Below are positions 4,075 through 45,114 of a DNA stretch of 64,000 bases, in pieces. The stretch covers positions 1,532-65,531 of IMG/VR virus record IMGVR_UViG_3300045988_097954; one strand, given 5' to 3'. The position numbers and the translations under genes are program-made. The notes under the pieces were generated by a model that saw only the letters and a program-made list of their open reading frames with translations, was not told the DNA's origin and did not search any database. Source of the stretch: a virus. Position 1 is the first letter of the stretch. The number at the start of each line of letters is the position of its first letter.

Positions 4075-4090
4075 CAGGAGATACACATAT

Positions 4091-4702
4091 ATGCAAGAAG
4101 TCGCATTAAAACGTAAAAAAGGATATGAGAATCGCATTGATTTCTTTGGTCTTGGCGATGATGTTACCGAAGCAAGAAACGCAGGGAAATCGTATATGCT
4201 GATTGCACGAGAGCTCAATAAGAAACATAAAAAAGAACTACAGTCAATCTTAATTACACCAAAGATGGTCGGCGATTGGTGTCGTACTAATTTAATACAA
4301 GAGCAGTCACCAACGCAAGAAACAGAGGTTATTAATACATACAATGAACAAAAAGGTCTCCTTGAGTTGGTTGAGACACAACTTGAGATGATTCAATTGT
4401 TTATCGATGATTTACAATGCCAAGACATCCAAGGCTCTGTACCGTCTGACCTTTTGTATGACCGTATGAAGAATCTTATGTTAGACCAAGAGAAATACAT
4501 TGGGCGGAAACAGTCTATTCTCAAAGACATGCAAAATATCGCAGAAAAGATATACACTTTCCAAGCAATGAACGCTATTATACTAGAAATCATGCGTATG
4601 GTCGAACAAGAAGACCCTGTTTTAGCCGAAAAAATCAAGAATAATATGAAAGAAAACAAGATTTTATTGGCGAATTATGCTAAAATTCAACAAAATTCAT
4701 AA
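4091..4702 (+). CDS. HTH-containing protein, possible small terminase subunit by position
   Basis: 203 aa immediately upstream of terL. HTH-like segment KSYMLIARELN and a coiled-coil-rich C-terminus. No motif-level proof. Confidence 0.4.
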   Translation: MQEVALKRKKGYENRIDFFGLGDDVTEARNAGKSYMLIARELNKKHKKELQSILITPKMVGDWCRTNLIQEQSPTQETEVINTYNEQKGLLELVETQLEMIQLFIDDLQCQDIQGSVPSDLLYDRMKNLMLDQEKYIGRKQSILKDMQNIAEKIYTFQAMNAIILEIMRMVEQEDPVLAEKIKNNMKENKILLANYAKIQQNS

Positions 4703-4719
4703 AAATTCTGTTAAAAAGT

Positions 4720-4754
4720 GTTACAAAATCAAAATGTTTTATACTATATATAGA
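4720..4754 (+). promoter_or_regulatory. 35-nt late-promoter-like motif, copy B
   Basis: GTTACAAAATCAAAATGTTTTATACTATATATAGA, 27 nt upstream of the terL start. Confidence 0.55.
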
Positions 4755-4780
4755 GAGCAATTTCTACAGGAGGTGTGTCC

Positions 4781-8650: not shown

Positions 8651-8700
8651 TCATCGATATCTTTTATTAATTCATTATCAATTACAGGAGAAACAAACTA

Positions 8701-9717: not shown

Positions 9718-9735
9718 TTCAAACGATTAATCACA

Positions 9736-9755
9736 GGGGTGTCTAATGACACCCC
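9736..9755 (+). terminator. stem-loop after the capsid gene (weak or partial terminator)
   Basis: GGGGTGTC-TAAT-GACACCCC; only a weak T tract follows. Confidence 0.4.
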
Positions 9756-9781
9756 AATGTCTTAACCGAATGGAGAAACAC

Positions 9782-9991
9782 ATGTTAGTAACTTTAAAGA
9801 ATACGGATGCGAAACGCATTTATCTCTGTGGTCGAATCATTGATTCTGAAAACGGTCGTTTTGAGGTCACAGAAGAAGAATATGCGTTAAACGAATCCAT
9901 TTTAGAGCCTGTGGATAAAAAAGCAGGAAAAGTGGTAAAACCACTTGAAAAAACCGAAGAAGATGTAAAAGACGAAAAACCGTCCAAATAG
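9782..9991 (+). CDS. hypothetical head-associated protein
   Basis: ATG 9782 follows GGAGA. The track start at 9746 lies inside the hairpin. Confidence 0.5.
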   Translation: MLVTLKNTDAKRIYLCGRIIDSENGRFEVTEEEYALNESILEPVDKKAGKVVKPLEKTEEDVKDEKPSK

Positions 9992-10000
9992 GAGTCAACT

Positions 10001-10573
10001 ATGTCGATGTATTTAGAACCATTTGAGATGGAAGAATATGGTGCAATTATCCCATTTGATGAAACTCATGTTAAATTCGCATCGACAATGATTGATGCTT
10101 ACATTGGAACAAACAATGGGAAATCCAAATTTACATCTAACACGACAACCGAAGTAATCAAGCCAACACGCAAAGGATTGTTGATACTAAAGAATGACCC
10201 TGTGATAGACATTGTTTCTATACAAGGGGTAACAACAAGAGATGTGCATGAAGACGGAGTTGAGATTGAACCATATTTATATGACTTCGATGGCAGCAAA
10301 TATGTGTATTTATCAAACAATTCCGCCAATATGACATACTCTAAGATATTCTTACGAAACGCAAGATATTATAAAGTCACATACAAATACGGATTCGATG
10401 AAATCCCAGAAGAAGTTAAAACGGCGTGTGCTATGCTTGCGATGAATATCTCTCAAGTATCAACATTTACTGCATTGGATTCCATGACTACTTTGGATGC
10501 TAGATTTTCCCTTGCTGACCCTAATCTATTTACCAATGAGATTAAGTCTCTACTGTCTCGCTATAGATTTTAA
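10001..10573 (+). CDS. putative head-tail connector/adaptor
   Basis: Position after the capsid gene; RBS AGGAG. Confidence 0.45.
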   Translation: MSMYLEPFEMEEYGAIIPFDETHVKFASTMIDAYIGTNNGKSKFTSNTTTEVIKPTRKGLLILKNDPVIDIVSIQGVTTRDVHEDGVEIEPYLYDFDGSKYVYLSNNSANMTYSKIFLRNARYYKVTYKYGFDEIPEEVKTACAMLAMNISQVSTFTALDSMTTLDARFSLADPNLFTNEIKSLLSRYRF

Positions 10574-10585
10574 ACGGAGGTATGT

Positions 10586-11173
10586 ATGAATCCAAAATAT
10601 ACACCAAAGTTTGATTGTACACGTATGTTCGCATCGTGGCGTGAGATAATAACCTGTATAGGCAAGAAACCAGAATATGTACTATTTACTAGAATTGGTC
10701 GTGGTACAAAGCGTTTTCTTGTGAACAATGTCAGATGGGGAAGTCTAATGTCAGATTCTTCGCTAGAAAGTGGAGATATCTGTCAGCGGTCAAACGGAGA
10801 TACGCTGTTTTTGGTCGCTAAAACAAACTCATTCAACGGTGATAAGGGTGAGTTTTATACAACAAACACTACAGTAAATCTTTATAAAGTTTCAAATCAG
10901 TTAGATGAATACGGCAATACAGCTGGCACATCCGTTGAGAAGACTGCGGAGAACATCAAATGTGTATACGAAGATGTATCCGCAAAAATGCATTTGTTTG
11001 ATTATGGTTTGTTACCAACTACAACCAAGCGTTTTATCCTGCCAAAAGATACTAAAGTGGCACTACTTGATAGAATCGAAAGCAATGGACAGTTGTTACA
11101 AATTGATGTAATTAACAAGTTTGACTTCGCTCCATTCTTGTATGTGCAATGCTCACCAGATGAGCGTGGATAG
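10586..11173 (+). CDS. putative head-tail joining protein
   Basis: RBS GGAGG; lies in the head-completion block. Confidence 0.45.
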   Translation: MNPKYTPKFDCTRMFASWREIITCIGKKPEYVLFTRIGRGTKRFLVNNVRWGSLMSDSSLESGDICQRSNGDTLFLVAKTNSFNGDKGEFYTTNTTVNLYKVSNQLDEYGNTAGTSVEKTAENIKCVYEDVSAKMHLFDYGLLPTTTKRFILPKDTKVALLDRIESNGQLLQIDVINKFDFAPFLYVQCSPDERG

Positions 11174-27965: not shown

Positions 27966-30722
27966 TTAAGGGGTATTTTGTTTTAGTTCTAATGGTTTAA
28001 CCTTGCGAATTGTGTCACCATATACTTGGATATAATACCCTTTGCCACACTCAAGTTCGACCAAATAATTAGACCACATGACATATCTATTGCCGTTATG
28101 GTCTAAGATATTCGCCATGGGTTTGCCTGCTTTGGTTGTTCGTCTCTCGAATTTGCTACAGATGATTGCCTTGACGTCACGACCATTTGCTAGATTTGTG
28201 TTATATCCCTTTAGAGGGTCTTCAAATGAACACCCAAGGTATTTATATCTAAGAGTACTCACAGACACCTTACAGGTTAAATTTGGCGATTCTATGAGCA
28301 TTATAGAGTTATATTTATCAGTCCATTCTTGTATCTTGTTTTCAATAGATACCTTTTTCTTTTTCATTGACTGTTGTTGCTTGAGTGTTACATTATCAAA
28401 CTCTTGAGACATTAATTTCTCATGTTCTAACAATTTGGCTTTCCACTCGTCAATTTTCGCCAATGCGTTCTTTCTGTCTCCATCATAGGATTTATACTCA
28501 GGGATTAGTGCCATTAATTCATTGGTATCGCCCAAGAAATCCAATGCACCACTACCGACTAGACCTTCAAGTTGAAGCTTTGTGTATTTACTAAAGATAG
28601 CATCAATGGTATATTCATGTGGTTTTTCAATCTTGTTGATACCACGGATATATGAAAGTCCAACTCGGATGGAATTCCCCTGTACTGTCCATTCACGTTT
28701 ACTGTACCTTAGGTCAGGTGGTAAAATCTCGATACCCTTGCGTTTAATCTCTTGAATGTACGGTAGTATTTTCTCTTGATTGCCGTCTTCGGAATTAATG
28801 GTTGCTACATAGAATTCCAACGGATAGTGAGCCTTTAGGTATGCAGTTATGTATGCCATATATCCGTATGATTGACTGTGAGAGTTACATACGACCAAGC
28901 CATTGTTCACAACAAATGTATGGTTCGGATGTGCCATTTCTACGTCATAAACATCTTCAACACCGACATACGTAATAGACTTGATTTTATCAGCATTCAA
29001 CAAATAACCGTGGTCGCCTTTTTTAGCACGCCCATGTTTATAATGTTCTTTTTTATGACAAGACACACAAAGCCATTGGAAGTTGTCTAAATCGTTATTC
29101 TTGCGATTAAAGTCTTTATGATGCATTTCAAATCGAGTAGACCCATATTCGCATCCGCACAATTCACAAGGTCTTTGTTCTTGTTTTGCATTTTCGATAG
29201 ACTGCTCAAAGTTCCGATATGGACTGTAGTCTTTTCGTTGAAAACCTTGTTGACCTTTTGTTGGTAAATTATCAGAACGCTTCAAACCAGTTAAATTATA
29301 TGTATCTTTGACGACTGCTCTTTCACCTTTGGTATATAATAAATCACCGACTTGCAATTCACTCAATAGCTTGATACCATCTGGTGTAGGAAATTTATGT
29401 TTCATAGTTGATTTTACAAAAGAACCGTTTTCTGTTTCAACTAAGTAAACATCGTTTTTACCCTTATAGTAGATGTCAACAATATCATTTATTTTAATTC
29501 TATCGTCAACCATACTGAGAGATTTACCATAGCCATTTCTACGGTACTTACCCCTCAATGCTGTGTGACCGTTCTTTTTCGCCCAATCATTATCATGCAT
29601 TGTTTTATACATTTCTGCGACCGTCAATGGTTTATGACGACCCTTGTCTCTATACAGCACAGTATCACCAGAAATACAATGGTTAAACGAATAAGAGCCT
29701 GCTGCAACAATCATATCTAAAATCTGTTGTGCAACCTCTGGGTCTGTACCTGTGGATTTTGCACGTTCGATGAATTCACCTGTAATCTGTTGCATTAAAT
29801 CATGGTCTTTTTTGCCGATGGCTCTACGAACGGTGTCTGCTTCTGCCATACTGTAGCCACCAATTACTTGTACAACTTTCATAATGTCTTCTTGATATAG
29901 CATGATACCGTATGTTTCAGACAAGACATCTTTGAGTCGTGTGTCTAAATATTCAAACGGCTTGCCATTTCTTCGGTCAATAAACTCTTGTAATGTACCA
30001 CCAAGAATACATGCTGGTCTATATAACGCAACAACAGAAATTAAGTCAACAAAAGACCTTGGTGCAATATCTTTTAGAACTTGAGTCATGCCATATGATT
30101 TCATTTGGAATACACCAAGCGTATCGCCTTTACGTAATAACTCAAGTGTTTTCTCGTCATTCCACGGCAAATTAATTAAATCTAGGGTGTCCTTAACGCC
30201 TGCGATAGTTACACAATCGTCAATAACATCCAGTGTTCTTAACCCAAGAATATCCTCTTTTAGAAATCCCATGGACTCCAAATGTTTAAAATTTGTAGAT
30301 GCCACATATGTTTCTTCCTTTGTTTTAGAATCTTTTTGCATTTCTAAAGAGCAGTACTTTGTAATATCTTGATTTGATACAATAACTGCCGATGCATGCT
30401 TACCAAAGCCAGTCATAATACCGACCAACTGTTTTGCTAAAGAGAATAGCTCTGGATATTTATGGTCGTTCACATGTTCTAGTTTTGCATGTTCTAGTTC
30501 ATCATCGTAGAAATCTTTATCATCATCGAATGACACCTTTTTAATTTTCTTTGAGTACGCATCTGCAATATCTTTATCAACCCCAAGACATCGTGCGGCT
30601 TCCTTGAGTGCACCTGCTGCTTTCATGTATGAGAATGTACGACATTGGTATACATATTTGTATTTTTCTTTTAAATATTCAATGACTTCCGCACGTCTTA
30701 CTTGGGAACAATCGTTGTCAAT
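27966..30722 (-). CDS. dnaE: DNA polymerase III alpha subunit (DnaE-type), exon 2, includes the intein
   Basis: The reading frame continues upstream of the track ATG (30626) to 30722. It reads IDNDCSQVRRAEVIEYLKEKY.., completing the PDxDxDF-type catalytic motif begun in exon 1. The finger motif FNxSH is split by the intein. Confidence 0.85.
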   Translation of the reverse strand: MDNDCSQVRRAEVIEYLKEKYKYVYQCRTFSYMKAAGALKEAARCLGVDKDIADAYSKKIKKVSFDDDKDFYDDELEHAKLEHVNDHKYPELFSLAKQLVGIMTGFGKHASAVIVSNQDITKYCSLEMQKDSKTKEETYVASTNFKHLESMGFLKEDILGLRTLDVIDDCVTIAGVKDTLDLINLPWNDEKTLELLRKGDTLGVFQMKSYGMTQVLKDIAPRSFVDLISVVALYRPACILGGTLQEFIDRRNGKPFEYLDTRLKDVLSETYGIMLYQEDIMKVVQVIGGYSMAEADTVRRAIGKKDHDLMQQITGEFIERAKSTGTDPEVAQQILDMIVAAGSYSFNHCISGDTVLYRDKGRHKPLTVAEMYKTMHDNDWAKKNGHTALRGKYRRNGYGKSLSMVDDRIKINDIVDIYYKGKNDVYLVETENGSFVKSTMKHKFPTPDGIKLLSELQVGDLLYTKGERAVVKDTYNLTGLKRSDNLPTKGQQGFQRKDYSPYRNFEQSIENAKQEQRPCELCGCEYGSTRFEMHHKDFNRKNNDLDNFQWLCVSCHKKEHYKHGRAKKGDHGYLLNADKIKSITYVGVEDVYDVEMAHPNHTFVVNNGLVVCNSHSQSYGYMAYITAYLKAHYPLEFYVATINSEDGNQEKILPYIQEIKRKGIEILPPDLRYSKREWTVQGNSIRVGLSYIRGINKIEKPHEYTIDAIFSKYTKLQLEGLVGSGALDFLGDTNELMALIPEYKSYDGDRKNALAKIDEWKAKLLEHEKLMSQEFDNVTLKQQQSMKKKKVSIENKIQEWTDKYNSIMLIESPNLTCKVSVSTLRYKYLGCSFEDPLKGYNTNLANGRDVKAIICSKFERRTTKAGKPMANILDHNGNRYVMWSNYLVELECGKGYYIQVYGDTIRKVKPLELKQNTP
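28884..29678 (-). mobile_element. intein with nested HNH endonuclease domain in DnaE
   Basis: 265 aa. Begins CISGDTVL right after FNH, has TxxH (STMKH), and ends VYDVEMAHPNHTFVVNNGLVVCN followed by SHSQSY. HNH motif CELCGC..HHKD..N..NFQWLCVSCHKKEH lies in the middle. Confidence 0.8.
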
Positions 30723-31571
30723 CCTGTTTACCCTCTGTTTCCAGATATTTATTAGGGGAGTAGACTATCTCATCATCTTGTTAAAAACAAGAGCCTTGCA
30801 CTTCCATTGGGGCAATATCCAATGTACTTCACTACTGTGAATAGTCGTTACACTTTATATGAAAACAACCAACTTTACGATACTTATGCATAGAACTTAG
30901 TGAGCCACCATAAACTTTATGGAAATATCTTGACGCTTCAAGACACGACTGAAAACTTTTTATTGGTGTATCACCGTTATATAATGTACACTCTCTAAAA
31001 TTACGGACAGGCGACATTGTTTGGTAAGATTTATATAAATTTTCCTTTCTTGTTACCCATCTTAAATTAGAGACATGATTATTTTTAATATTATTATCTA
31101 TGTGGTCTACTTCTGGCAAGTTATTCGGATTAGGAATAAAAGCCATTGCGACCAATCGGTGAACAGAAAATTGTTTAGTTATATTATTCTTGTTTAGCCG
31201 AACGTACATATATTTACTTCTGGTTGTAGGTGCTTGAGAAATAAAACGTTTAGAATAATTGCTATAAACACGACCATCTTCATATACGATATAATTCTCA
31301 TACCCCTTAATTGGTTTTGATTTCATTATTACCTCTTTTTAGAGGTTGTTTTCATACCTTAGCACGGTATTATCTGCTATCTCGTGTATTATATACACTA
31401 GACCGTAGACTCTCTTACGAAGCGTATTCGCCTATGGATAAAGACTATAATTGTCATATAGCCAGTCTTATTTAACTTCTACCGTTAGCCGTCTATTGAC
31501 GACACCGCTTTTGCCATAGCGTTCACAAGGTTCTCAGCTATGTGTCACCACACGCTCGGACATTAAAATCT
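30723..31571 (-). mobile_element. group I intron interrupting dnaE
   Basis: Exon 1 stops 2 codons after ..NRVSPAD. Exon 2 resumes in frame as IDND.. The 5' exon ends in U, and CGGAU pairs with intron GUCCG (31557-31561) to form a P1 helix with a U.G wobble. The intron ends in G and carries a free-standing HNH ORF. Confidence 0.75.
30832..31326 (-). CDS. intron-encoded HNH homing endonuclease
   Basis: YENYIVYEDGRVYS N-terminus and VDHIDNNIKNNHVSNLRWVTRKEN (HNH_3-type); RBS AAAGAGG. Confidence 0.85.
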   Translation of the reverse strand: MKSKPIKGYENYIVYEDGRVYSNYSKRFISQAPTTRSKYMYVRLNKNNITKQFSVHRLVAMAFIPNPNNLPEVDHIDNNIKNNHVSNLRWVTRKENLYKSYQTMSPVRNFRECTLYNGDTPIKSFQSCLEASRYFHKVYGGSLSSMHKYRKVGCFHIKCNDYSQ

Positions 31572-32768
31572 ATCCGCTGGAGATACACGATTTGGGTTCG
31601 CAAACCGTTCAAAATACAAGTTGTTTTTAATGGCATCTAAACCGACAATATCGAGTAAATATGCACACTCGCATCCACCAACCGACCCCCTGCCCACTTG
31701 AGACACTGGTATGCCACGCTTGCGACATGCATCGAGCAAGTCTTTGGTAATCAACAAGTAGTCCATATACCCAACTTGTTCCAAAATATCAATCTCGTGT
31801 AGCACGCGTTCGTCTACCTGTTTTTTGAATTCAGGCGTGACCTTGCCGATAATCTTTTGTTTATACCCATCACGCAACGCCTGTAAAAACACAGGTTTAA
31901 CATCCCCATCTTTAACAAACTTAGGGTATACGTCAAGATTGAAATCAATTTGTGTATTGCATTGGTCGAACACAACATTAGTATTCTTTACCATTGTTTC
32001 AACCATATCTACACCAAATTGTGGATACAGACGGTCAAACACTTGTGCTTCCGATTGGATAAAAAAGTCATTGCTTGCATAGTATTGGTCTTCGTCATCA
32101 TCTTTAGACCGACCACGGAACGCTTTGTGTAATTCATAGTCTTCTTCATACACATAATGAGAATCACAAGCGGCAATCAATGGAACATCATACTTGACAG
32201 ACATTTCTGCAACCATTGCATTAAAACGCTTTTGGTCTTCATGTTGATACGTGTGGATTTCAAAATACAAGTCGTCACCAAAGATATCTTTAAATTGTGG
32301 TATTAATGACTCACGATTATCACCTTTTAGCCATCCACCCATGCATGCAGACGTACAGATTAATCCCTCAGAGTACTGCTTGATTAAGTCTAAATCAATT
32401 CTTGACTTATAATAATAATGTTTATGTGCTTCTGTTGTCAACTTAAATAAGTTCTCAAGACCTGTTTGGTTTTTCGCAAGAAACAGTATGTGAGAATACG
32501 ATTTATCTTTAATTGACACATCATATGTATAATACAACTCTGAACCAAAGACCATCTTTAAGTCGGTCTGATGTTTCTGATTGTATTTCTGTAGATGTAC
32601 ATATGTATCAATCAAGCCTGAGCAACCATTGTGGTCTGTAAGTGCAAACCCTCGTTGTCCAAGTTCATGTACACGCTTTATGATGCCGTCTACAGAACTT
32701 ATGGCATCTTTCATACCATAGTTTGAGAATTGTGAATGTAGATGCAAATGAATAAAGTTATCTGCCAT
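31572..32768 (-). CDS. dnaE: DNA polymerase III alpha subunit (DnaE-type), exon 1 (PHP domain)
   Basis: HLHLHSQFS and TDHNG PHP motifs; ends ..FERFANPNRVSPAD at the splice site. Confidence 0.9.
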
Positions 32769-36331: not shown

Positions 36332-36360
36332 TTGACACTCCTATAGTATTGTGCTATAGT
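36332..36360 (+). promoter_or_regulatory. sigma-70 type promoter
   Basis: TTGACA-17-TATAGT. Confidence 0.65.
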
Positions 36361-36401
36361 ATAACCATAGAACAACGTATTTGATTAAACAGGAGGATTT
36401 T

Positions 36402-36518
36402 ATGAAAGTAGTATCTTACAGACATCTATTTGGAGACAATCAATGGGAGTCAGAAAACTTAGACAAATATGCTGTTGTAAAAGATGGCGTTAAATATGCA
36501 CCGTTAAAAAATTGTTAA
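36402..36518 (+). CDS. small hypothetical protein (38 aa)
   Basis: ATG 6 nt after AGGAGG; below the ORF-track size cutoff. Confidence 0.45.
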   Translation: MKVVSYRHLFGDNQWESENLDKYAVVKDGVKYAPLKNC

Positions 36519-36569
36519 AAAGACAAACCTTATTTATGAAGAGTATGCTGTAAAGGAGATTAAAGTCTA

Positions 36570-37295
36570 ATGAACATACTGATTGCATGTGAAGAATCCC
36601 AAACAGTTTGCTTATCCTTTAGAAAACTTGGGTTTAACGCCTATAGTTGCGACCTAGTGGAATGCTCTGGTGGTTATCCACGTTGGCATATCCAAGGCGA
36701 TGCACTAGAAGTCATCAGAAATAACGGTGGTACAACTCAAGATGGTAAACGTGTGATAGTCGATAAATGGGATTTAATGATTGCCCATCCACCGTGTACA
36801 TATTTGACATCTAGTGGTGCAAAATGGTTTTATCATCCAGATGACAAAGGTTTACCAATTGAAGACCGAAGACCACATCCAAAGTTTCCCAATCGCAAGA
36901 AAGACCAAGATGCTGGTGCTGAATTTTTCATGGCATTATACAATTCCGACATTCCATATATTGCAGTAGAAAACCCTGTTGGTGTCATGTCAACACGTTT
37001 TCGCAAGCCAGACCAAATTGTTCAACCGTTTATGTTTGGCGACCAAGCACGCAAAACAACTTGTTTATGGCTCAAGGGTTTGCCACTATTAGAGCCAACT
37101 AATGTTGTAGACGAGGGCGAGACTTTGACGTTTAAAAGCGGCAAGCGTATGCAAAAGTGGATTTCTGATGCATTAACAAATACCAAGACTGCCGAAGAAC
37201 GCAGACGATTACGTTCTAAGACATTCGAAGGTATGGCACAAGCAATGGCATCTCAATGGGGTGCATTTGTATTATCGCAGGAGGAAAACAAATGA
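36570..37295 (+). CDS. DNA (cytosine-5) methyltransferase-like protein
   Basis: ILIACEESQ N-terminus, catalytic-type PPCTYLTSSG and ENPVG motifs in C5-MTase order. Small (241 aa) with no obvious target-recognition domain. Confidence 0.5.
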   Translation: MNILIACEESQTVCLSFRKLGFNAYSCDLVECSGGYPRWHIQGDALEVIRNNGGTTQDGKRVIVDKWDLMIAHPPCTYLTSSGAKWFYHPDDKGLPIEDRRPHPKFPNRKKDQDAGAEFFMALYNSDIPYIAVENPVGVMSTRFRKPDQIVQPFMFGDQARKTTCLWLKGLPLLEPTNVVDEGETLTFKSGKRMQKWISDALTNTKTAEERRRLRSKTFEGMAQAMASQWGAFVLSQEENK

Positions 37296-38050
37296 AAGAT
37301 TTTGAGATTATCAAAGATTTGGTTTCTACAGAAGAATATTACCAATATTTAGACCATATGATTTTTCATTATTCAACAATGGAAGTTTCATTAGAACAAG
37401 CATTAGAATTAAAATCATATGTAGATGAATTGGTTGATACATTAGAAGAAAACAAAGGTAATAACACATCTGCTGAACTTGATAAATACTTAGAGCGGTC
37501 TTATCGTGAATTTTTCAAAGAACAAGAAGAGTCGATGGTTGATGACGTAGAAGAGCCTACACAGGATACATCTGATGTAGAATTTAAAGTTGGTGACCGT
37601 GTTGTAGTACGCCCTGATAACAGGATTGTTGACAAACAATATTGGGGAACAGTTATCTTGGTACACAAAGATTTACATGGTGATTACAACTATTTAGTAG
37701 AATTAGACAATAAAAAACTTGGATGGATAGCAACTGTTGGACTAGAGGGCATCGCCTGTGACAATGCATGGTGGGCAGACCCAGAAACTATGGTTCATAT
37801 GAAAGATTATCTAAAGAAAGATGTTTGGTATGATTGCCATAATTTTACACCAGAGCAGCTCAAAGAAGTGTTGCATATTGGAACAACAATTGACGTTGTT
37901 GTATTGGACGATAGTGAAATTACAAAAGATGATTTAGTTGGTGAATTTTCTTGTGTGTCTCGTGTAGAAGATATTATCACACAGGATGGACAAACCGTAA
38001 TCGAGGTTAATCGTGGTAATTGCTATCGTAGATATTTCAAACTAGCATAG
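37292..38050 (+). CDS. hypothetical acidic protein
   Basis: ATGA-coupled start after CAGGAGG; contains an SH3-like VGDRVVV segment. Confidence 0.55.
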   Translation: MKDFEIIKDLVSTEEYYQYLDHMIFHYSTMEVSLEQALELKSYVDELVDTLEENKGNNTSAELDKYLERSYREFFKEQEESMVDDVEEPTQDTSDVEFKVGDRVVVRPDNRIVDKQYWGTVILVHKDLHGDYNYLVELDNKKLGWIATVGLEGIACDNAWWADPETMVHMKDYLKKDVWYDCHNFTPEQLKEVLHIGTTIDVVVLDDSEITKDDLVGEFSCVSRVEDIITQDGQTVIEVNRGNCYRRYFKLA

Positions 38051-38072
38051 TATTACATCAGGAGGGCAAATT

Positions 38073-38990
38073 ATGAAATACAGAAACGGTAATGCCGTTG
38101 TTACACTTGATTTAAGAGATGGAACACGTGTGATTGAATACCCAGATAACGAACGTTTAACTTTGGAGACACCACTCAATATTGACGTTCGAGTATCCAC
38201 ACGTTGTCCATACGGCTACGATAGCACAACACAACATTCTACTTGTGGATTCTGCCATGAGTCTGCACTTGTAAATGGACATGAGTGTGATTATAATGCT
38301 TTGACTCAGGTTTTTACAGATGCCAGATTACCACGTGGTACGGAAATTGCCTTGGGTGTCAATGAAGTAACGGACTCCTTAGTATATTTTGTCAAATATT
38401 TATATTTTTTGGGTCTAGTTGTCAACATTACAATGAACGAGCGTTATATTAACGAATATGGCGATACAGGGCTATTAAGATTAAAGCCGTATATCTTTGG
38501 TCTTGGGATTTCTTATCGCTCCTTACAGGGGTGTTTATCGCTACCAGATTGGATTGCAGAATATCCACATACGGTTATCCATGTGATTAATGGCATTGAT
38601 GATTTTACAGATGTCATGGAGCTTGGGGTGAAGTACCGTAAGTTATTAGTCTTGGGTGAAAAAGACTTTGGATTCAACCGTGGTAAAGTCGATTTGTCTA
38701 CTAAAGAACATCAACAATGGAAAACCAATATTATGCAATTGACACAAATCTTTGATGTTGTGTCTTTCGACAACTTAGGGTTGCAACAATTGGACATCCG
38801 TGGTAAAATATCCATACAGGAATACAATGAATTTTACCAAGGTGAACATTCTATGTATATCAATGCGGTAGAACAATATTTTGCACCATCTAGTCGGACA
38901 CGCAATAATATTAAATACTTTAGCGAAACCGCAATTAAACCGTATTTCCAATATTGCGAACAACAGGGGGTATCTCATGAGACTTATTAG
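38073..38990 (+). CDS. hypothetical enzyme with Cys cluster C-x12-C-x2-C (possibly radical-SAM-like)
   Basis: VSTRCPYGYDSTTQHSTCGFCHE near the N-terminus, then alternating beta/alpha-like segments. The assignment is tentative. Confidence 0.3.
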   Translation: MKYRNGNAVVTLDLRDGTRVIEYPDNERLTLETPLNIDVRVSTRCPYGYDSTTQHSTCGFCHESALVNGHECDYNALTQVFTDARLPRGTEIALGVNEVTDSLVYFVKYLYFLGLVVNITMNERYINEYGDTGLLRLKPYIFGLGISYRSLQGCLSLPDWIAEYPHTVIHVINGIDDFTDVMELGVKYRKLLVLGEKDFGFNRGKVDLSTKEHQQWKTNIMQLTQIFDVVSFDNLGLQQLDIRGKISIQEYNEFYQGEHSMYINAVEQYFAPSSRTRNNIKYFSETAIKPYFQYCEQQGVSHETY

Positions 38991-39471
38991 ACATAGTGTT
39001 TTCGAAACAAACAGCTCTTCTTGTCATTCAATGGCATATGTCGCAAGATTACAATTAAATGTACCACAGGAGACACAAACGATTACTCAGCAATTTGGTA
39101 CTCTTGGTTTTACTCCAATGTTTAATGACCAATCTTGGGAAGTGCATTTTAAGAACTATATGTGGAAAGAACAAAAGTTATCATCACCACAAGACAAATT
39201 ATGGTTTTTATTAATGGAAGTCTATAGTGAGTCTTTGCTTGATGAAGTGTTTGCTGATGAGTTCTATCTACATGTAAAACAATGGCTACAAGACATCGGC
39301 ATTTATCTGGAAGAAATTGGATATGATGAAAATGACTACATAGAAAATATACCAACCAACGGAATAGTAAAACAAGAGATGTTTAAAACACCACAAGATT
39401 TATATAAATACTTGTTTGATAATAATCTTATAATTGACATTCGTCAATATGAGGTCGAAGCTGAGTATTAA
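38977..39471 (+). CDS. FETNSSS-motif family protein, paralog 1 (divergent)
   Basis: MRLIRHSVFETNSSSCHSMAY.. Start 38977 follows CAGGGGG. Shares N-terminal, KQWLQDIGI and DLYKYLFDNN motifs with 39802 and 40865. Confidence 0.6.
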   Translation: MRLIRHSVFETNSSSCHSMAYVARLQLNVPQETQTITQQFGTLGFTPMFNDQSWEVHFKNYMWKEQKLSSPQDKLWFLLMEVYSESLLDEVFADEFYLHVKQWLQDIGIYLEEIGYDENDYIENIPTNGIVKQEMFKTPQDLYKYLFDNNLIIDIRQYEVEAEY

Positions 39472-39484
39472 TGGGAGGACTAAT

Positions 39485-39802
39485 ATGCAAACATATTTAA
39501 CACAAGAGCAGCAAAGAGAGTTAAATACTTTGTTAAACGCAACTTATAGCGAAAAAGACGAGTTGTTTAGCGATTTTCTTTATAATTACCCATACTATCT
39601 AATGGAAGAAGATTCTGGGGTTGATTGGGTTGATGAGTATTATAGTGGTAAATGGATTGTTTATCAATGCATTGATGGTCGATATTTTAAGCTGACATAT
39701 ACAGAACACAACAGTATGCAAGACCGTGATAATTGGGAATTCTTTGAGGTTAGACCGTTCCCAAAAACAGTCTTTGTTTACGAACCAGTGGAGGAAAACT
39801 AA
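39485..39802 (+). CDS. small protein homologous to the N-terminal domain of 39802-40884
   Basis: GKWIVYQCIDGRYFKLTYTEH..WEFFEV aligns with VYMCSNGKYYMLECYEPH..YRFIEV. RBS GGGAGG. Confidence 0.55.
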   Translation: MQTYLTQEQQRELNTLLNATYSEKDELFSDFLYNYPYYLMEEDSGVDWVDEYYSGKWIVYQCIDGRYFKLTYTEHNSMQDRDNWEFFEVRPFPKTVFVYEPVEEN

Positions 39803-40884
39803 TGGATTCTCAAGACCAACATTCTTTAGAGTGTCTATTGGAATCATCCTTTGGTATGCGTTGTGATGTAGACATGATGCCGTCTTGCTTAGATTTAGTA
39901 AAAAGACGAGTTATTTTTGTTACTGATACTTATACTAAGGTTATGGAAGTCTATATGTGTTCTAATGGCAAATACTATATGTTAGAATGTTATGAGCCAC
40001 ACATAGGCACTCACAGAATGTTATATCGATTTATTGAAGTTGAACACAAGATGAAAATTGTTGATTATTTTTGTGCCACTACAGGAGGAAAACAAACGAA
40101 ATTAATACGCAATGGTGTATTTGAGACCAACTCTAGCTCTGCACATTCGTTGGCATACACAAATAAAGTCTTGCGTGATTATGAGTATAAAATCAATCCA
40201 TCCGAATGTTTGAAAGATAGCCGTTTTCGTCTAACAGAAATGCCAGAAGAATATCGCTCGTATGCATATATGCCGTTATACTTTGATGATTACGGCTGGA
40301 GTGGCAAATGCTTAACATCTCCTGCCCAAAAACTGAGTTATTTGATGTCGTCCGTTTACCAGTATAAAACTTGGGGAGAAATGTATAGTGACCCATTCTT
40401 TAAGCAAATTGTACAATGGTTGACTGAACTAGGTATTAATCTTGAATATGAATACCCAGGTGATGACGAAAGAATTGACGGTTATGTAGACCACCAGTCT
40501 TATGACGTTGTGTGTAAACAGATGTTTAATTCTAAAGAAGATTTACTTACGTATTTATTCAATGATGCAATTACTGTGTATATCGAAAATGATAACGATG
40601 ATTTTCAAGAATGGGTTGAAAACCCGAGTGATACAATCGGTTATCAAGAAGCAATGTATTATGTTTGTTCTCGTGGTAAATGTGCTAAACGTAAATCTTG
40701 GGATGATAATACATATATTTATTCTGACTTGGTATATTCTCATGATAACAACTATTTGGGGCAAGCCATTATAAAAGTTTGTGATAAATCTAAATGGTTA
40801 TATGCTGCAAGTACGTCTGATGTAAATGCAAATGACTGGGTTATTCTTTGGGAGGTAAACAAATATGCGATTAGTAAGAAATAA
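39802..40884 (+). CDS. three-domain fusion: small beta-rich domain, FETNSSS-motif domain, DUF2829-like C-terminus
   Basis: IRNGVFETNSSSAHSLAY.., DGYVDHQS, KEDLLTYLFNDAITVYIENDNDDFQEW. The C-terminus has GYQEAMYYV..KRKSW..ANDWVIL. Confidence 0.6.
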   Translation: MDSQDQHSLECLLESSFGMRCDVDMMPSCLDLVKRRVIFVTDTYTKVMEVYMCSNGKYYMLECYEPHIGTHRMLYRFIEVEHKMKIVDYFCATTGGKQTKLIRNGVFETNSSSAHSLAYTNKVLRDYEYKINPSECLKDSRFRLTEMPEEYRSYAYMPLYFDDYGWSGKCLTSPAQKLSYLMSSVYQYKTWGEMYSDPFFKQIVQWLTELGINLEYEYPGDDERIDGYVDHQSYDVVCKQMFNSKEDLLTYLFNDAITVYIENDNDDFQEWVENPSDTIGYQEAMYYVCSRGKCAKRKSWDDNTYIYSDLVYSHDNNYLGQAIIKVCDKSKWLYAASTSDVNANDWVILWEVNKYAISKK

Positions 40885-41401
40885 TCTGTTTGAAACCAAT
40901 AGTTCCTCGGCTCATTCTTTGGCTTTTGGCACATCTAAAATCATTCGTGGTGCTGGATGGGGCATACCAGAAGATGAAACCGACTTCAGTAATCCATTGT
41001 ATCACCTGTATGAAATCCCAAGTTGTTATCAAGGATATACACTGCATGAATGGCTTGGGGAATATGGCTGGGGTTATGACGTACTGTCTACACCACAAGA
41101 AAAATTCTCTTATTTAATTACAGGTATTTGGCAACGGAATGGTGGCTTCTCGTTAGAGAAGAGCATGTTTTATACCGAAATTAAACATTGGTTGACAGAG
41201 TTGGGTATTCCAGTGATTGAATCATCCGCAGATGAAGAAGGTTATATCGACCACGAAAGTACGCACTTAGTAAATCCATCGTTGTTTAAAACCAAAGAAG
41301 ACTTGATTACATACTTGTTCAATGATAATATTGTGATTTACATTGAGAACGACAACGATGAATATCAAGAGTGGTACACAGGTGAAAGGTCAGAAGATTA
41401 A
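40865..41401 (+). CDS. FETNSSS-motif family protein, paralog 3
   Basis: VRNNLFETNSSSAHSLAF.., EGYIDHES, KEDLITYLFNDNIVIYIENDNDEYQEW. Confidence 0.6.
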   Translation: MRLVRNNLFETNSSSAHSLAFGTSKIIRGAGWGIPEDETDFSNPLYHLYEIPSCYQGYTLHEWLGEYGWGYDVLSTPQEKFSYLITGIWQRNGGFSLEKSMFYTEIKHWLTELGIPVIESSADEEGYIDHESTHLVNPSLFKTKEDLITYLFNDNIVIYIENDNDEYQEWYTGERSED

Positions 41402-41841
41402 TGAGAGATGTATATATTGTCTATTCTTGCAGTGGCGAATGGGAAGACTATATAGAATCTATTGTGTATCTAGTGTATCACAAACATTATGCAGAGATAC
41501 TATTGAAACAGCTACAAGAAGAAGACAAGCGGTTAGAACAAGAATATAGACAGGTTTACAAACAATTGGAATCATTCGAGGACGATGACTTAGGAGACCT
41601 TTGGTTAGATAGGGTAGAAGATATATATTTTGAAGACTTTTTAAATGAGCCTGAGCAGTACCCAAATGTCTTATCTCAGTTTACAATCCCTGAGCAAAAA
41701 CGTTTGCTTGAATATGCACAGTTATATAAACGATGGGAACAACTCGGTGGATATATGTATGATGGCACAAATTATTTTATTCGTCAGTATGCCATGAGCG
41801 ATGACGGTCGTATGACATATATCAACAGTAATTGGGGGTAA
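41401..41841 (+). CDS. hypothetical protein
   Basis: TAATG-coupled; 146 aa. Confidence 0.55.
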   Translation: MRDVYIVYSCSGEWEDYIESIVYLVYHKHYAEILLKQLQEEDKRLEQEYRQVYKQLESFEDDDLGDLWLDRVEDIYFEDFLNEPEQYPNVLSQFTIPEQKRLLEYAQLYKRWEQLGGYMYDGTNYFIRQYAMSDDGRMTYINSNWG

Positions 41842-41844
41842 CGT

Positions 41845-42066
41845 ATGACATATGCAGAAGTAACAAAAGATATTTACGCAGGTCTCATTGTAAAGCGAAA
41901 ATCTTGGAATAATATTCGTGTTCAATACATGGATTTATTCGATGGGTTTGATAGTTTTGTAGATTTTGCCATGGTATTATATGATGAAATAACAAGAGAA
42001 TACATTGGTATTTATACACCAGAACCACGAGATGAATTTGCCAACGATTGGGTGATTGTTAAATGA
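41845..42066 (+). CDS. DUF2829-like small protein
   Basis: MTYAEVTKDIYAGLIVKRKSWNN ... ANDWVIVK, the hallmark N- and C-terminal pattern of DUF2829. Confidence 0.5.
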   Translation: MTYAEVTKDIYAGLIVKRKSWNNIRVQYMDLFDGFDSFVDFAMVLYDEITREYIGIYTPEPRDEFANDWVIVK

Positions 42067-42386
42067 GATTAGAACACAAGATTGATAATATATTGGGTAG
42101 AAATTATGCGTTTCTTATTGTAGATAACCCTGTATCTGTAGATACTTTAGATTTGATACAATGGATACACAATAGTATTCACAGAGATATATCATATAGA
42201 CAAATTCTTGGCATATTACATATGATTGACTTGTATGAACGGACAGGTGACAAAAACATTCCTGTGTCCGCCGAGTCTCATATTGGTAGAACTGTAGCAA
42301 AATACTTTTTGCCACACAAGATGTCATATGTGTTATCTGGTGAACTACAGTTTAAACCGTTGAATATGCCACAGGAGGATGAATAA
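42063..42386 (+). CDS. hypothetical protein
   Basis: ATGA-coupled. Confidence 0.5.
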   Translation: MRLEHKIDNILGRNYAFLIVDNPVSVDTLDLIQWIHNSIHRDISYRQILGILHMIDLYERTGDKNIPVSAESHIGRTVAKYFLPHKMSYVLSGELQFKPLNMPQEDE

Positions 42387-42655
42387 TGAATTTTATTGAT
42401 AATTGTCTAAATGCTGTATGGCTGACTTTAAGTGTCGAAGATAATCAAGCCGATGAAGTTTATGAATCTTTAAAGATTGTATGGTTCTCAAAGACACTAC
42501 AAAATCATAAAGCCTTAGTTATGTCTACTTCTGGCTATTTTAATGAAACATATTGGGAAGTAACATACAATGGCGACAAAGACGAGTATTATGTTGATGA
42601 GTACATTAAAACCTCTAATGAAGTAATATCTGGTGATGATATTGAAACAATGTAA
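42386..42655 (+). CDS. hypothetical protein
   Basis: RBS CAGGAGG. Confidence 0.55.
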   Translation: MNFIDNCLNAVWLTLSVEDNQADEVYESLKIVWFSKTLQNHKALVMSTSGYFNETYWEVTYNGDKDEYYVDEYIKTSNEVISGDDIETM

Positions 42656-43799
42656 AGATTATAACGATTTATTAATAAATGGATATGACATCTCTACACT
42701 TGAAACTGAACCCTTAGATATTACATGCTTAAATGTTTTACTGGAAGAGTACCCAAGACAAGAAGACCAATACAAAAAGGCTGCACGCTTTTGTAAATCC
42801 GTAAACGACTCTATGGTTCTAGCAGATATTGCAACCATGCTGGCAAAACGATGGGAGCGTTCCATTGAAGAAGTCAAAAGTTATCTCAATGTGTCTGCAA
42901 CTAATGGTGAAGAACTTTGGGAAAAAGTCCATGGTTTCTCTGATTCGTTTGAAGACTTGAAATCGTTCATTGGGCAAGAAGGTGTGCCGCTTGGGTTTCC
43001 CTCTTTGGACTTGGCTTTGGGTGGTGTCAAACGCCGTGAGATTGTATTACTTGGGGCATACACCAACCAAGGTAAATCATTCTTTGCAGCCAAAGTTGCA
43101 GCACATCGCTTGATGGACTCAAGTGATAATATTTTGGTTTTCTCAATGGAGATGCCAAGGGGTCAATTCTTGGCTGAAATCATAAAAGAAATCTTGGGTG
43201 TCAACGATGATAAATTACTTGAGATGTTACAAACGGAGCATGGTGTTGAATTATATTCAAGAGTGTCATCTGTTTTAGACAAGCGTATCCGTATTGTGGA
43301 TGAACCAAACAAGGATATTGACGACTTGTTTAAAATTACCGCTGTATGTCAAGCGAATGATTTTCCTGTGGATTTTGTCGTGTTTGACCACTTCCATTTA
43401 ATCCCAGAGGTTGATGACATTCCTGTAATGACACGTAATGCCAATAAGATGAAAGAATACGTAAAGCAATTCAATTTGGTTTTATTTATGCTTTGTCAGT
43501 TCAATGAAGACTCCCAGTCCAACTTTAGCAAAGACAAAAATAAGAAACCTTATGAAGCTGTCTTGCGTAACATCAAGGGTGCAAACGCACTCAAGGCAAT
43601 CGCAGATATTGTTCTACTACTGTGGCGACCGTATAAAACGGATACACAACTTGACTTTGATGAACGTCAGAAAATCAAAAATATTTCCTGCGTTAAGATT
43701 GGGAAGTCTCGCAGACCAATCAAGGGTTATGCTGACATATTCCAACTCAAGTATAACGAGGAGACATCACATCTCGAAGAAGTAAATTTCTTTAATTAA
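42636..43799 (+). CDS. dnaB: replicative DNA helicase (DnaB/RecA-fold)
   Basis: Walker A GAYTNQGKSFF, Walker B VVFDHFHLI, later KGANALKAIADIV. Exact start uncertain (GTG 42633 or ATG 42636). Confidence 0.8.
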   Translation: MILKQCKDYNDLLINGYDISTLETEPLDITCLNVLLEEYPRQEDQYKKAARFCKSVNDSMVLADIATMLAKRWERSIEEVKSYLNVSATNGEELWEKVHGFSDSFEDLKSFIGQEGVPLGFPSLDLALGGVKRREIVLLGAYTNQGKSFFAAKVAAHRLMDSSDNILVFSMEMPRGQFLAEIIKEILGVNDDKLLEMLQTEHGVELYSRVSSVLDKRIRIVDEPNKDIDDLFKITAVCQANDFPVDFVVFDHFHLIPEVDDIPVMTRNANKMKEYVKQFNLVLFMLCQFNEDSQSNFSKDKNKKPYEAVLRNIKGANALKAIADIVLLLWRPYKTDTQLDFDERQKIKNISCVKIGKSRRPIKGYADIFQLKYNEETSHLEEVNFFN

Positions 43800-43814: not shown

Positions 43815-43843
43815 TTGACATTTTATCACGAATGTGATATTAT
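43815..43843 (+). promoter_or_regulatory. sigma-70 type promoter of the tRNA operon
   Basis: TTGACA-17-TATTAT. Confidence 0.7.
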
Positions 43844-44380: not shown

Positions 44381-44537
44381 TATGGTGCTTATATACTGCC
44401 ATTAAGGGCTGGACGCACGATGGGTGTCTAGCTGTATATACCATTCAACAGCTATACAGTAGTTTACAAGGAAAAACAGCATCCAGTATGGGTGAAGACG
44501 GGAGGTTCGATGCCTGCCATGTATAGTGGTGTTGTAT

Positions 44538-44611
44538 TCTTGGGTAGTTCAATGGTAGAGCATCTGGCTGTTAACCAGAGAGTTGCAAGTTCGAGTCTTG
44601 CCCAAGAGCCA
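44538..44611 (+). tRNA. tRNA-Asn (anticodon GTT)
   Basis: Hand-folded cloverleaf: TA, GTTC-AATGGTA-GAGC, TCTGG-CTGTTAA-CCAGA, GCAAG-TTCGAGT-CTTGC, then GCCA. The acceptor/T-stem junction is one nt short. Confidence 0.75.
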
Positions 44612-44612
44612 T

Positions 44613-44698
44613 GTCGTTGTGGTCAAGATGGATAAAGACAACAGACTGTAAATCTGTCGCTTATAGCTTCGTAGGTTTGAATCATCCCAACGGCACCA
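44613..44698 (+). tRNA. tRNA-Tyr (anticodon GTA), long variable arm
   Basis: Acceptor GTCGTTG/CAACGGC, ACAGA-CTGTAAA-TCTGT, variable arm CGCTTATAGCTTC, then ACCA. The T stem is weak (3 of 5 pairs). Confidence 0.6.
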
Positions 44699-44699
44699 T

Positions 44700-44773
44700 G
44701 TGGGCATGGTGTAATGTAAACACGTCGGTCTCCAAAACCGAAGATAGGGGTTAGATTCCTCTTGCCTATGCCA
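44700..44773 (+). tRNA. tRNA-Trp (anticodon CCA)
   Basis: Acceptor GTGGGCA/TGCCTAT, GTGT-AATGTAA-ACAC, TCGGT-CTCCAAA-ACCGA, AGGGG-TTAGATT-CCTCT, then GCCA. Confidence 0.8.
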
Positions 44774-44774
44774 T

Positions 44775-44851
44775 ATCCCCATGATGAAACTGGCAAACAT
44801 ACTGGACTTAGAATCCAGGTTTTGTAGGTTCGAGTCCTACTGGGGATACCA
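44775..44851 (+). tRNA. tRNA with anticodon TAG (Leu by anticodon) but a short variable loop
   Basis: Acceptor ATCCCCA/TGGGGAT, CTGGA-CTTAGAA-TCCAG, 5-nt variable loop, GTAGG-TTCGAGT-CCTAC, then ACCA. Confidence 0.7.
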
Positions 44852-44854
44852 CAT

Positions 44855-44928
44855 AGAGATATGGTGTAATGGTAACACAGCAGATTTTGACTCTGCAATC
44901 CTAGGTTCAACTCCTAGTATCTCTTCCA
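44855..44928 (+). tRNA. tRNA-Gln (anticodon TTG)
   Basis: Acceptor AGAGATA/TATCTCT, GTGT-AATGGTA-ACAC, GCAGA-TTTTGAC-TCTGC, CTAGG-TTCAACT-CCTAG, then TCCA. Confidence 0.85.
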
Positions 44929-45024
44929 TTAAATCCACTGTGGGTCGCAACCACGGTGGTCGGTATTAGGGGTTTGCCGATAAGGGGAGAACGGATGCAT
45001 GCTGTTTTTCTAACCCACCTACAT

Positions 45025-45114
45025 GGATAGTTGGCAGAGTATGGTTTATTGCGACAGTCTTGAAAACTGTTGAGCGGAAACGCTCCGTGGGTTCAAATCC
45101 TACACTATCCTCCA
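45025..45114 (+). tRNA. tRNA-Ser (anticodon TGA), long variable arm
   Basis: Acceptor GGATAGT/ACTATCC, ACAGT-CTTGAAA-ACTGT, variable arm GAGCG-GAAA-CGCTC, GTGGG-TTCAAAT-CCTAC, then TCCA. Confidence 0.85.

Follow-up and report, generated by a model that had tools for sequence, protein, structure and literature searches.

Several radical-SAM maturases and activases act on dedicated protein substrates: anSME acts with sulfatases, which carry a (C/S)-x-(P/A)-x-R formylglycine motif; PFL-AE and NrdG act with glycyl-radical enzymes, which carry an R-V-x-G-[FWY] motif; and RiPP radical-SAM maturases act with several precursor paralogues, short peptides of conserved leader and variable core encoded in several copies next to the maturase. 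Peptide maturases usually possess recognition domains or a C-terminal SPASM/twitch domain, with extra Cys motifs for an auxiliary Fe-S cluster, whereas viperin, QueE and MoaA are small-molecule radical-SAM enzymes. Among phage counter-defence proteins, the Tad2-like/DUF2829 family (PF11195) includes the anti-Thoeris sponge Tad2, which binds and sequesters gcADPR, and an anti-CRISPR (PDB 8kbi). Phage gene catalogues separately list phrog_28997 (‘unknown function’) and phrog_16999 (‘Fe-S oxidoreductase’). Here, a locus in a 64,000-nucleotide stretch of viral DNA (IMG/VR record IMGVR_UViG_3300045988_097954, positions 1,532 to 65,531; ‘the window’) is shown to combine members of these two phage families with Tad2-like domains, in the following arrangement.

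38073..38990 (+), divergent radical-SAM enzyme (305 aa; assignment inferred through homologues), with the cluster motif Cys45-x12-Cys58-x2-Cys61 at nt 38205-38255
38977..39471 (+), FETNSSS-box protein copy 1 (164 aa), box at nt 39001-39030; body type-A-like but without DH.S and NDN motifs; start overlaps the radical-SAM stop by 14 nt
39485..39802 (+), small free-standing clade-specific protein (105 aa), a distant paralogue of the piece at the start of copy 2
39802..40095 (+), 98-aa small-protein module now fused in frame to copy 2
40096..40641 (+), FETNSSS-box type-A domain of copy 2, box at nt 40120-40149, DH.S and NDN motifs present
40642..40884 (+), Tad2-like (DUF2829, PF11195) domain at the C-terminus of copy 2
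40865..41401 (+), FETNSSS-box protein copy 3 (178 aa), type A, box at nt 40889-40918
41401..41841 (+), 146-aa ORF without a significant family hit, a clade-specific neighbour with homologues in only 19 close loci, not part of the universal module
41845..42066 (+), free-standing Tad2-like (DUF2829) protein (73 aa)

A preliminary description, made from the sequence alone, had reported the three neighbouring ORFs at 38977-39471, 39802-40884 and 40865-41401 as paralogues, and this observation is confirmed. All ORFs lie at those coordinates, and an independent assembly of the same phage (ERR589449) has the same gene calls of 164, 105, 360, 178, 146 and 73 aa. It had been set beforehand that a lack of statistical significance in pairwise alignment would count against the family, but BLASTP gave 32% identity over 162 aa between copies 1 and 3 (E 9e-25) and 43% over 174 aa between copies 2 and 3 (E 5e-45). 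The reported motifs (FETNSSS[AC]HS, WL..[LI]GI, DL..YLF, GY[IV]DH[EQ]S and YIENDND..QEW) are all visible in a multiple alignment, and copy 1 does lack the DH.S and NDN blocks. A six-frame scan found exactly three box proteins and one radical-SAM gene in the window, with family HMM E-values of 3.9e-36, 4.4e-43 and 4.3e-45 for copies 1, 2 and 3.

The two Tad2-like assignments also held: copy 2 residues 281-348 scored 29.0 bits (E 1.6e-6) and ORF 41845-42066 scored 27.3 bits (E 5.2e-6, full-length match 1-73/73), against a Pfam cut-off of 25 bits. The reported similarity between the first 98 aa of copy 2 and ORF 39485-39802 was marginal pairwise (25% identity, E 7e-4), although iterative search with jackhmmer merged the two groups; homologues of the free-standing protein occur only in close relatives. 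However, the N-terminal fusion requires correction. In every relative the 98-aa piece is a separate ORF followed by an RBS and an ATG (stand-alone 98-aa ORFs were found in L004, L008-L015, L022 and L032 of the numbered loci retrieved here), whereas in the window a 1-nt indel plus ATG>ACG joins the two genes, with the RBS AGGAGG retained. The fusion is therefore a recent, lineage-specific, frameshift-type event rather than ancient domain shuffling.

The family is unrecognised by curated resources. It matches only phrog_28997, weakly for the window copies (E 3.9e-5 for copy 3, 9.7e-4 for copy 2, 6.2e-3 for copy 1) but in 96 of 110 family representatives (best E 1.8e-33), and searches of Pfam, NCBIfam, PADLOC, PDB sequences and, with Foldseek, PDB structures returned no relative. 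PIN, Toprim, metallophosphoesterase, SGNH and other folds were considered from motif resemblance, but Foldseek gave a best E of 0.62 for an AF2 model of pLDDT 70.9 and 1.7 for that of pLDDT 78.7 (copy 3), with TM below 0.2, and a profile search of PDB sequences gave nothing below E 0.5; the N-terminal part of the model is unreliable, so a remote fold relationship is not excluded. Chance or low-complexity similarity, or a housekeeping enzyme missed by the searches, is effectively refuted. Beyond the Ser-rich, low-complexity look of the box nothing favours it (tblastn with the low-complexity filter on did miss phage homologues), while against it stand the pairwise E-values, the 2231 50%-identity representatives recovered by HMM with E<=1e-3, the lack of any curated-family or structure hit, and the recovery of only 61 loci, mostly on MAG contigs, among 185,579 species genomes.

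What the preliminary description had missed is the gene immediately upstream, outside its coordinates. ORF 38073-38990 matches phrog_16999 (E 1.3e-19). The window protein itself has no Pfam hit at E<=1, but 25 of 34 aligned homologues hit PF04055 Radical_SAM (best E 4e-12), and the family profile hits radical-SAM PDB chains at 1e-4 to 1e-3; membership is therefore inferred through homologues. C45, C58 and C61 are invariant in the alignment, in which most homologues have the canonical CxxxCxxC (‘ITNxCDxGCxxCHE’), whereas the window protein and its clade have CX12CX2C because of a 9-aa insertion. There is no conserved Cys beyond these three cluster ligands, and the only Pfam hits are Radical_SAM and Fer4_12, so that the SPASM/twitch subclass is not indicated.

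Linkage of the two families runs in both directions, in hundreds of very different phages. Of loci seeded on the FETNSSS box, 67/79 from IMG/VR and 50/61 from GTDB carry exactly one radical-SAM homologue, always on the same strand (median gaps -9 and 16 nt), and 79/80 loci seeded on a radical-SAM peptide pattern that owes nothing to the box carry box proteins; even three contigs of 1.5-2.3 kb show the pair. The base rate of this radical-SAM family, by comparison, is 24 of 50,697 phage records. No third gene family is conserved beyond close relatives. One enzyme gene accompanies one to many partners: the first set held 172 box proteins against 68 radical-SAM proteins, and copy number is 1-10 per locus (median 2), so a three-copy array is typical. 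Lak-B1 has four in tandem after the radical-SAM gene, and Microcystis phage Ma-LMM01 has gp130 with gp128. Despite this adjacency, no radical-SAM/box fusion was found among 120 and 344 proteins.

Only the N-terminal box of roughly 20 residues, M-[KR]-x-I-R-x-x-V-F-E-T-N-S-S-S-x-H-[SA], is shared by all box proteins, and it behaves as an independent unit. R5, E10 and S13-15 are invariant, and F9, T11, N12 and H17 at least 90% conserved, in 110 representatives found without any pattern; loci were partly retrieved through the box pattern, so that box invariance in the seed copies is circular, but the pattern-free searches mitigate this. The box starts at residue 5-9 in 234 of 327 proteins. The bodies, which can bear C-terminal add-on domains, fall into at least three classes: type A with GEYGW, DH and NDN motifs, a short type B ending ..VAFGEYGYDG, and others; A+B pairs are frequent directly next to the radical-SAM gene. 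Fewer than half of box proteins keep the DH and NDN motifs, with 186 of 327 lacking DH and/or NDN yet keeping the box. Copy 1, suggested earlier to be an inactive paralogue, is not an odd inactive copy but belongs to this majority class, and its orthologues (P0121 and P0123 among the collected proteins) likewise lack DH/NDN and keep the box. Although most conserved, the box is the least confident part of both AF2 models (residues 1-13 below pLDDT 50 in copy 3), which fits a segment not packed in the monomer but may simply reflect alignment or model limits.

The preferred reading, held tentatively, is that the three ORFs are the protein partners of the radical-SAM enzyme, together forming an obligate, phage-specific two-component module of one radical-SAM gene plus 1-10 tandem box proteins, in which the enzyme acts with, and probably on, the box. 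The co-occurrence of the two families on the same strand and usually abutting, the box as sole shared feature and the classes of body are established by the sequence comparisons, whereas the mechanism, and any catalysis, ligand binding or biological role, is inferred. In this view the enzyme would bind the exposed box of each paralogue and chemically modify it, most plausibly at the invariant Ser-Ser-Ser/His, resembling a maturase acting on several related protein substrates. In type-A proteins (copies 2 and 3) the modified box would work with the conserved Asp-His and Asn-Asp-Asn residues as the catalytic centre of a small, probably metal-dependent, enzyme, and variable C-terminal add-ons, here the Tad2-like, putatively nucleotide-binding domain, would direct it to a ligand. 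The weak subfamily matches of the radical-SAM enzyme include protein and peptide maturases and activases (W-cofactor maturase, NrdG2, HxsC), although those to MoaA, viperin and QueE are as good. Other features sit less easily with this reading: the invariant box residues (E, N, S, H) look like catalytic or metal-binding residues, not only a recognition tag; no recognisable peptide-recognition domain was looked for or seen; the supposed substrates are folded proteins; and the box of copy 2 is internal (residues 108-117) after the recent fusion, which is awkward if a free N-terminus is required. The role would be accessory, with counter-defence one possibility.

A less likely alternative is that the radical-SAM enzyme and the type-A proteins are consecutive enzymes acting on a small molecule, nucleotide or DNA base, for example making or trimming a modified nucleotide, without protein modification, the extra paralogues providing different specificities or being regulatory pseudo-enzymes. 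The conserved E/N/S/H, DH and NDN residues of type A do look like a hydrolase or phosphoesterase site, the module sits between primase/methyltransferase and DnaB in the window and next to primase and a resolvase in Ma-LMM01, and the weak small-molecule matches and clade-specific fusion to a predicted nucleotide-binding domain are consistent with it. However, it does not explain why paralogues that lost DH/NDN keep a perfect box, nor why the box sits at the very N-terminus; distant loci have no consistent nucleotide-metabolism neighbours; and there are no enzyme fusions despite tight adjacency. It is also conceivable, though unlikely, that box proteins are interchangeable specificity subunits, the box docking into the radical-SAM enzyme and completing its active site while variable bodies and add-on domains, Tad2-like and others, bring different targets to a single catalytic subunit. 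The gene ratio, the universal box with highly variable bodies and C-terminal add-ons, and the frequent A+B pairs would fit, but type-A bodies carry their own catalytic-looking motifs, and fusion to the catalytic subunit, common for obligate subunits, was not seen.

The interpretation first offered, a stand-alone counter-defence island built by shuffling a novel domain with Tad2-like sponge domains, is only partly supported, and as a whole appears more doubtful still. Paralogue expansion and C-terminal add-on domains are genuine features of the family, both Tad2-like domains (one fused, one free) pass the Pfam threshold, and some distant loci have accessory-type neighbours such as an ADP-ribosylglycohydrolase and a DHH phosphoesterase. 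Yet the array is not self-contained, given its linkage to the radical-SAM gene, and it lies inside the replication gene block. The Tad2-like association, the only argument for counter-defence, is confined to this phage's own clade (24 proteins in L004-L025 and L032), where a 262-aa FETNSSS+Tad2-like form is widespread, and is absent from about 115 distant loci. No PADLOC or anti-defence family hit was obtained.

Microcystis phage Ma-LMM01 gp130 and gp128 (‘Fe-S oxidoreductase’) and the Lak megaphage locus represent the same two families in the same neighbourhood, catalogued or annotated but uncharacterised; the databases list the families separately, and no statement of their linkage was found in the literature searched. 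As for Tad2, both window domains show the N-terminal ‘..G..V.RK.W’ and C-terminal ‘A.DWV’ hallmarks, but there was no significant sequence match to any solved Tad2 or Acr structure (a weak match of ORF 41845-42066, E 0.91, to the ‘type II CRISPR-Cas inhibitor’ 8kbi shows its N- and C-terminal DUF2829 motifs), and the domain is a clade-specific add-on rather than a defining part of the module.

With radical-SAM maturases and activases the module shares one radical-SAM gene tightly linked to one or several genes for proteins with a short, near-invariant motif, a one-to-many gene ratio, a Ser-rich candidate target and the absence of enzyme-partner fusions. It differs in lacking a SPASM/twitch domain and in being phage-specific, and modification of its partners is hypothetical. 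The box, F-E-T-N-S-S-S-x-H-[SA], has no P/R signature of the sulfatase (C/S)xPxR motif, and no sulfatase Pfam hit was obtained. The glycyl-radical motif is likewise absent: the G-[FY]-G-[WY] hairpin lacks the Arg, and its Gly is not conserved in many paralogues (for example ‘..ALSLYREN’ and ‘..AVSAYVAE’ in locus L138). Relative to RiPP cassettes, the conserved N-terminal segment, variable remainder and multi-copy adjacency are present, but the partners are proteins of 120-300 aa with predicted folded cores and the motif at the extreme N-terminus, not peptides. With viperin, QueE and MoaA the enzyme shares a single-cluster core of about 300 aa and weak profile matches (E 1e-5 to 1e-8) over the cluster and SAM-binding region; these cover only the generic N-terminal core, without an equivalog-level hit, and the conserved C-terminal motifs (SFDNLAxxQL, YMGDDG) are family-specific.

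The window is most of a roughly 65-kb tailed-phage genome, and carries a terminase, a split DNA polymerase, a primase, a DnaB helicase, a dUTPase, RusA and six tRNAs. The observation set out in the preliminary description, a tandem array of three FETNSSS-motif ORFs with neighbouring and fused small domains, was borne out: the ORFs lie where they had been placed, and an independent assembly of the same phage has the same gene calls. The three FETNSSS ORFs (copies 1, 2 and 3, in gene order) are clear paralogues (copy 1 versus copy 3, E 9e-25; copy 2 versus copy 3, E 5e-45), and every shared motif that had been reported for them is present in their alignment; copy 1 lacks the DH.S and NDN blocks. 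The C-terminus of copy 2 and a free-standing ORF both exceed Pfam's threshold for Tad2-like/DUF2829. The 98-aa N-terminus of copy 2 resembled a free-standing small ORF only marginally in a pairwise test (E 7e-4), although an iterative search united the two groups. The features of the window to which we refer, including some beyond the array, are as follows.

27966–32768 (− strand): DNA polymerase encoded in two ORFs, 31563–32768 (N-terminal part) and 27966–30626 (C-terminal part, with an internal HNH-like stretch at residues ~462–539); a free-standing HNH endonuclease gene (30832–31326) lies between them, which looks like a homing-endonuclease-split polymerase.
36332–36360 (+): near-consensus sigma-70-like promoter, TTGACA-17-TATAGT, with an extended −10 TG.
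38073–38990: radical-SAM ORF, ending 14 nt inside copy 1.
38205–38255: radical-SAM cluster motif, CX12CX2C.
39485–39802: free-standing ORF resembling the N-terminus of copy 2.
41845–42066: free-standing Tad2-like ORF.
42386–42655 (+): 89-aa ORF just upstream of DnaB, a clear DUF6275/phrog_918 member (E 1.4e-20) of unknown function, conserved with DnaB in the clade.
43815–43843 (+): near-consensus sigma-70-like promoter, TTGACA-17-TATTAT, with an extended −10 TG.
44537–45114 (+): cluster of six tRNA genes (Asn, Tyr, Trp, Leu, Gln, Ser) just downstream of the DnaB helicase gene, in a local GC peak (0.43 against ~0.37).

The description of the FETNSSS family as unrecognised holds for curated resources. 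The copies matched only phrog_28997, a PHROG of unknown function, which was also matched by 96 of 110 diverse relatives. Pfam, NCBIfam and PADLOC searches of the window proteins and of 110 family members gave only scattered single-member noise; no PDB sequence was hit by copy 3 or by a 110-member family profile; and Foldseek comparison of two AF2 models (pLDDT 70.9 and 78.7) with the PDB gave no hit below E 0.6. Foldseek against BFVD returned only an uncharacterised homologue, plus a weak hit (E 0.07) to a 461-aa ‘Radical_SAM domain containing protein’, which suggested a fusion, but no fusion was found among 120 radical-SAM and 344 box proteins. A near-identity DNA search of the region against 50,697 phage records gave no match, nor did tblastn of a typical family member (P0131) against phages, the latter probably because of low-complexity masking of the box. 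An exhaustive HMM search, in contrast, found 2231 representative clusters (50% identity) at E≤1e-3, most of them about 150 aa. Among 185,579 species genomes there are only 61 loci, almost all MAG contigs, and the family is therefore essentially viral.

The preliminary description missed the partner of the array. ORF 38073–38990 matches phrog_16999, ‘Fe-S oxidoreductase’; its homologues carry the canonical CxxxCxxC motif, and 25 of 34 hit PF04055 Radical_SAM. In the window protein and its clade (also in loci L020 and L043 of our numbered set) a 9-residue insertion (PYGYDSTTQHST) gives CX12CX2C, whereas the canonical CX3CX2C is seen in most homologues. Some homologues carry mobile-element-like additions: at L092 (3629–5704) a ~380-aa insertion splits the core between profile positions ~100 and ~94 (intein-like), and at L055 (9612–11153) and L099 (8993–10528) there is a ~200-aa N-terminal HNH/AP2-like extension.

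Linkage between the radical-SAM and FETNSSS-box families, by seed, with loci examined, partner found and median gap.
FETNSSS box, IMG/VR: 79 loci; 67 carry one radical-SAM homologue, same strand; −9 nt.
FETNSSS box, GTDB genome contigs: 61 loci; 50 carry it (misses are mostly short contigs); 16 nt.
Radical-SAM peptide pattern, IMG/VR: 80 loci; 79 carry box proteins; −13 nt.

The radical-SAM seed pattern has nothing to do with the box. Even three tiny contigs of 1.5–2.3 kb show the pair. This radical-SAM family occurs in only 24 of 50,697 deposited phage genomes, so the association is not a base-rate effect. A conserved third component was sought by clustering all neighbours, but no third family was conserved beyond the close relatives of this phage. 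Named phages with the module are Microcystis phage Ma-LMM01, in which gp128 occurs with gp130, and the Lak megaphages, with the radical-SAM gene followed by four tandem box genes in Lak-B1; the Ma-LMM01 and Lak copies were found by reading the neighbourhood.

Tandem arrays are the rule, with 1–10 copies per locus (median 2), and the three copies here are therefore typical. The largest arrays seen, ten tandem paralogues with very divergent bodies, were at L138 and L141 (Prevotella and Fibrobacter MAG contigs, about 1390–10750), and may be useful for defining the minimal conserved unit. The only universal feature is the N-terminal box M-[KR]-x-I-R-x-x-V-F-E-T-N-S-S-S-x-H-[SA], which starts at residue 5–9 in 234 of 327 proteins. 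In the pattern-free representative set, R5, E10 and S13–15 are invariant, and F9, T11, N12 and H17 are at least 90% conserved. The protein bodies differ: type A (141/327) has GEYGW, K..SYL.T, GYIDH.S and NDN, and includes copies 2 and 3; type B comprises about 40–50 short proteins of roughly 129 aa ending ..TPSGE.VVAFGEYGYDG, often directly next to the radical-SAM gene; and 96 proteins belong to neither. In this last group, copy 1 is a type-A-like body that has lost DH and NDN, as have its orthologues. Type-A domains also carry other C-terminal add-ons, such as a roughly 140-aa ‘PDPTFYHVPEF’ domain and the 300–480 aa forms. Both AF2 models give their lowest confidence to the box itself, even though it is the most conserved segment.

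The Tad2-like fusion (the 262-aa form) and the free Tad2-like ORF occur only in this phage's clade, in 24 proteins from loci L004–L025 and L032, and in none of about 115 distant loci. The N-terminal 98-aa piece of copy 2 is a separate ORF in all relatives, followed by AGGAGG and an ATG; in the window a 1-nt indel and ATG>ACG create the 360-aa ORF. The box of copy 2 is therefore internal, which is atypical for the family.

The genes from 36381 to 43799 are co-directional and mostly overlap, in a block in which the module lies between primase/methyltransferase and DnaB. The two best promoter-like sites, at 36332 and 43815, lie in the only sizeable intergenic gaps flanking the methyltransferase-to-DnaB gene block, suggesting one transcription unit, although this is only suggestive because promoter-like sites are not enriched over shuffles. 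No consistent functional neighbourhood was found in distant loci, where the neighbours are heterogeneous accessory genes: methyltransferases, a GmrSD-like protein, an ADP-ribosylglycohydrolase, a DHH phosphoesterase and RlaP. The ADP-ribosylglycohydrolase, a DHH/DHHA1 phosphoesterase and a GmrSD-N-like protein (L115: 1865–2641; L103: 4637–5647; L085: 309–2462) are of the kind often tied to phage–host conflict, but are not consistently present.

What the data show is an obligate, phage-specific module of radical-SAM enzyme and box proteins; that the enzyme acts directly on the exposed N-terminal box, as a maturase on its substrate, is our inference, and a tentative one. It rests on the 1-to-many gene ratio, the persistence of a perfect box in paralogues that lost the other motifs, the terminal position of the box and its low structural confidence, the absence of fusions, and weak affinities of the radical-SAM enzyme to maturases and activases. 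Against it, there is no SPASM or recognisable peptide-binding domain, the box residues look catalytic, matches to small-molecule radical-SAM enzymes are equally weak and equally good, and the box of copy 2 is internal. A two-enzyme pathway acting on a small molecule or DNA is a less likely alternative, an adaptor-subunit model is more doubtful again, and the stand-alone anti-defence array envisaged in the preliminary description is the least likely of these; the interpretation offered there was only partly supported. Resemblances to sulfatase formylglycine sites, glycyl-radical sites, pyruvoyl self-processing sites, SGNH hydrolases, metallophosphoesterases, PIN and Toprim were also considered, but they failed their defining features or the fold search, and they remain no more than resemblances.

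A more far-reaching possibility, which we consider unlikely although it is compatible with the evidence, is a previously undescribed, phage-wide protein-maturation system. A stand-alone radical-SAM enzyme would install a new post-translational modification in the invariant N-terminal Ser-Ser-Ser/His box of a diversified family of small effector proteins with a new fold, which phages from Lak megaphages to cyanophages and gut phages would deploy, with exchangeable C-terminal ligand-binding domains such as Tad2-like, to manipulate host nucleotide signalling or immunity.

The module is in any case widespread: at least 587 IMG/VR contigs carry the radical-SAM partner, and examples include, besides the Lak megaphages and Ma-LMM01, many gut, rumen and environmental phages, yet both halves are annotated only as ‘hypothetical’ or ‘Fe-S oxidoreductase’. 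The link turns two orphan families into one testable system, improves annotation of thousands of phage proteins, and may reveal new radical-SAM chemistry or a new phage strategy; it also cautions against reading the Tad2-like fusion as evidence that the whole family is anti-defence. Literature searches on the motif, on DUF2829 with radical SAM, on the ‘Fe-S oxidoreductase’ of Ma-LMM01 and on Tad2 with radical SAM returned nothing relevant, and the linkage of the two families, both catalogued in PHROGs but uncharacterised, appears undescribed. The arrangement itself has known counterparts, and we regard the module as a further form of a radical-SAM enzyme with dedicated protein partners.
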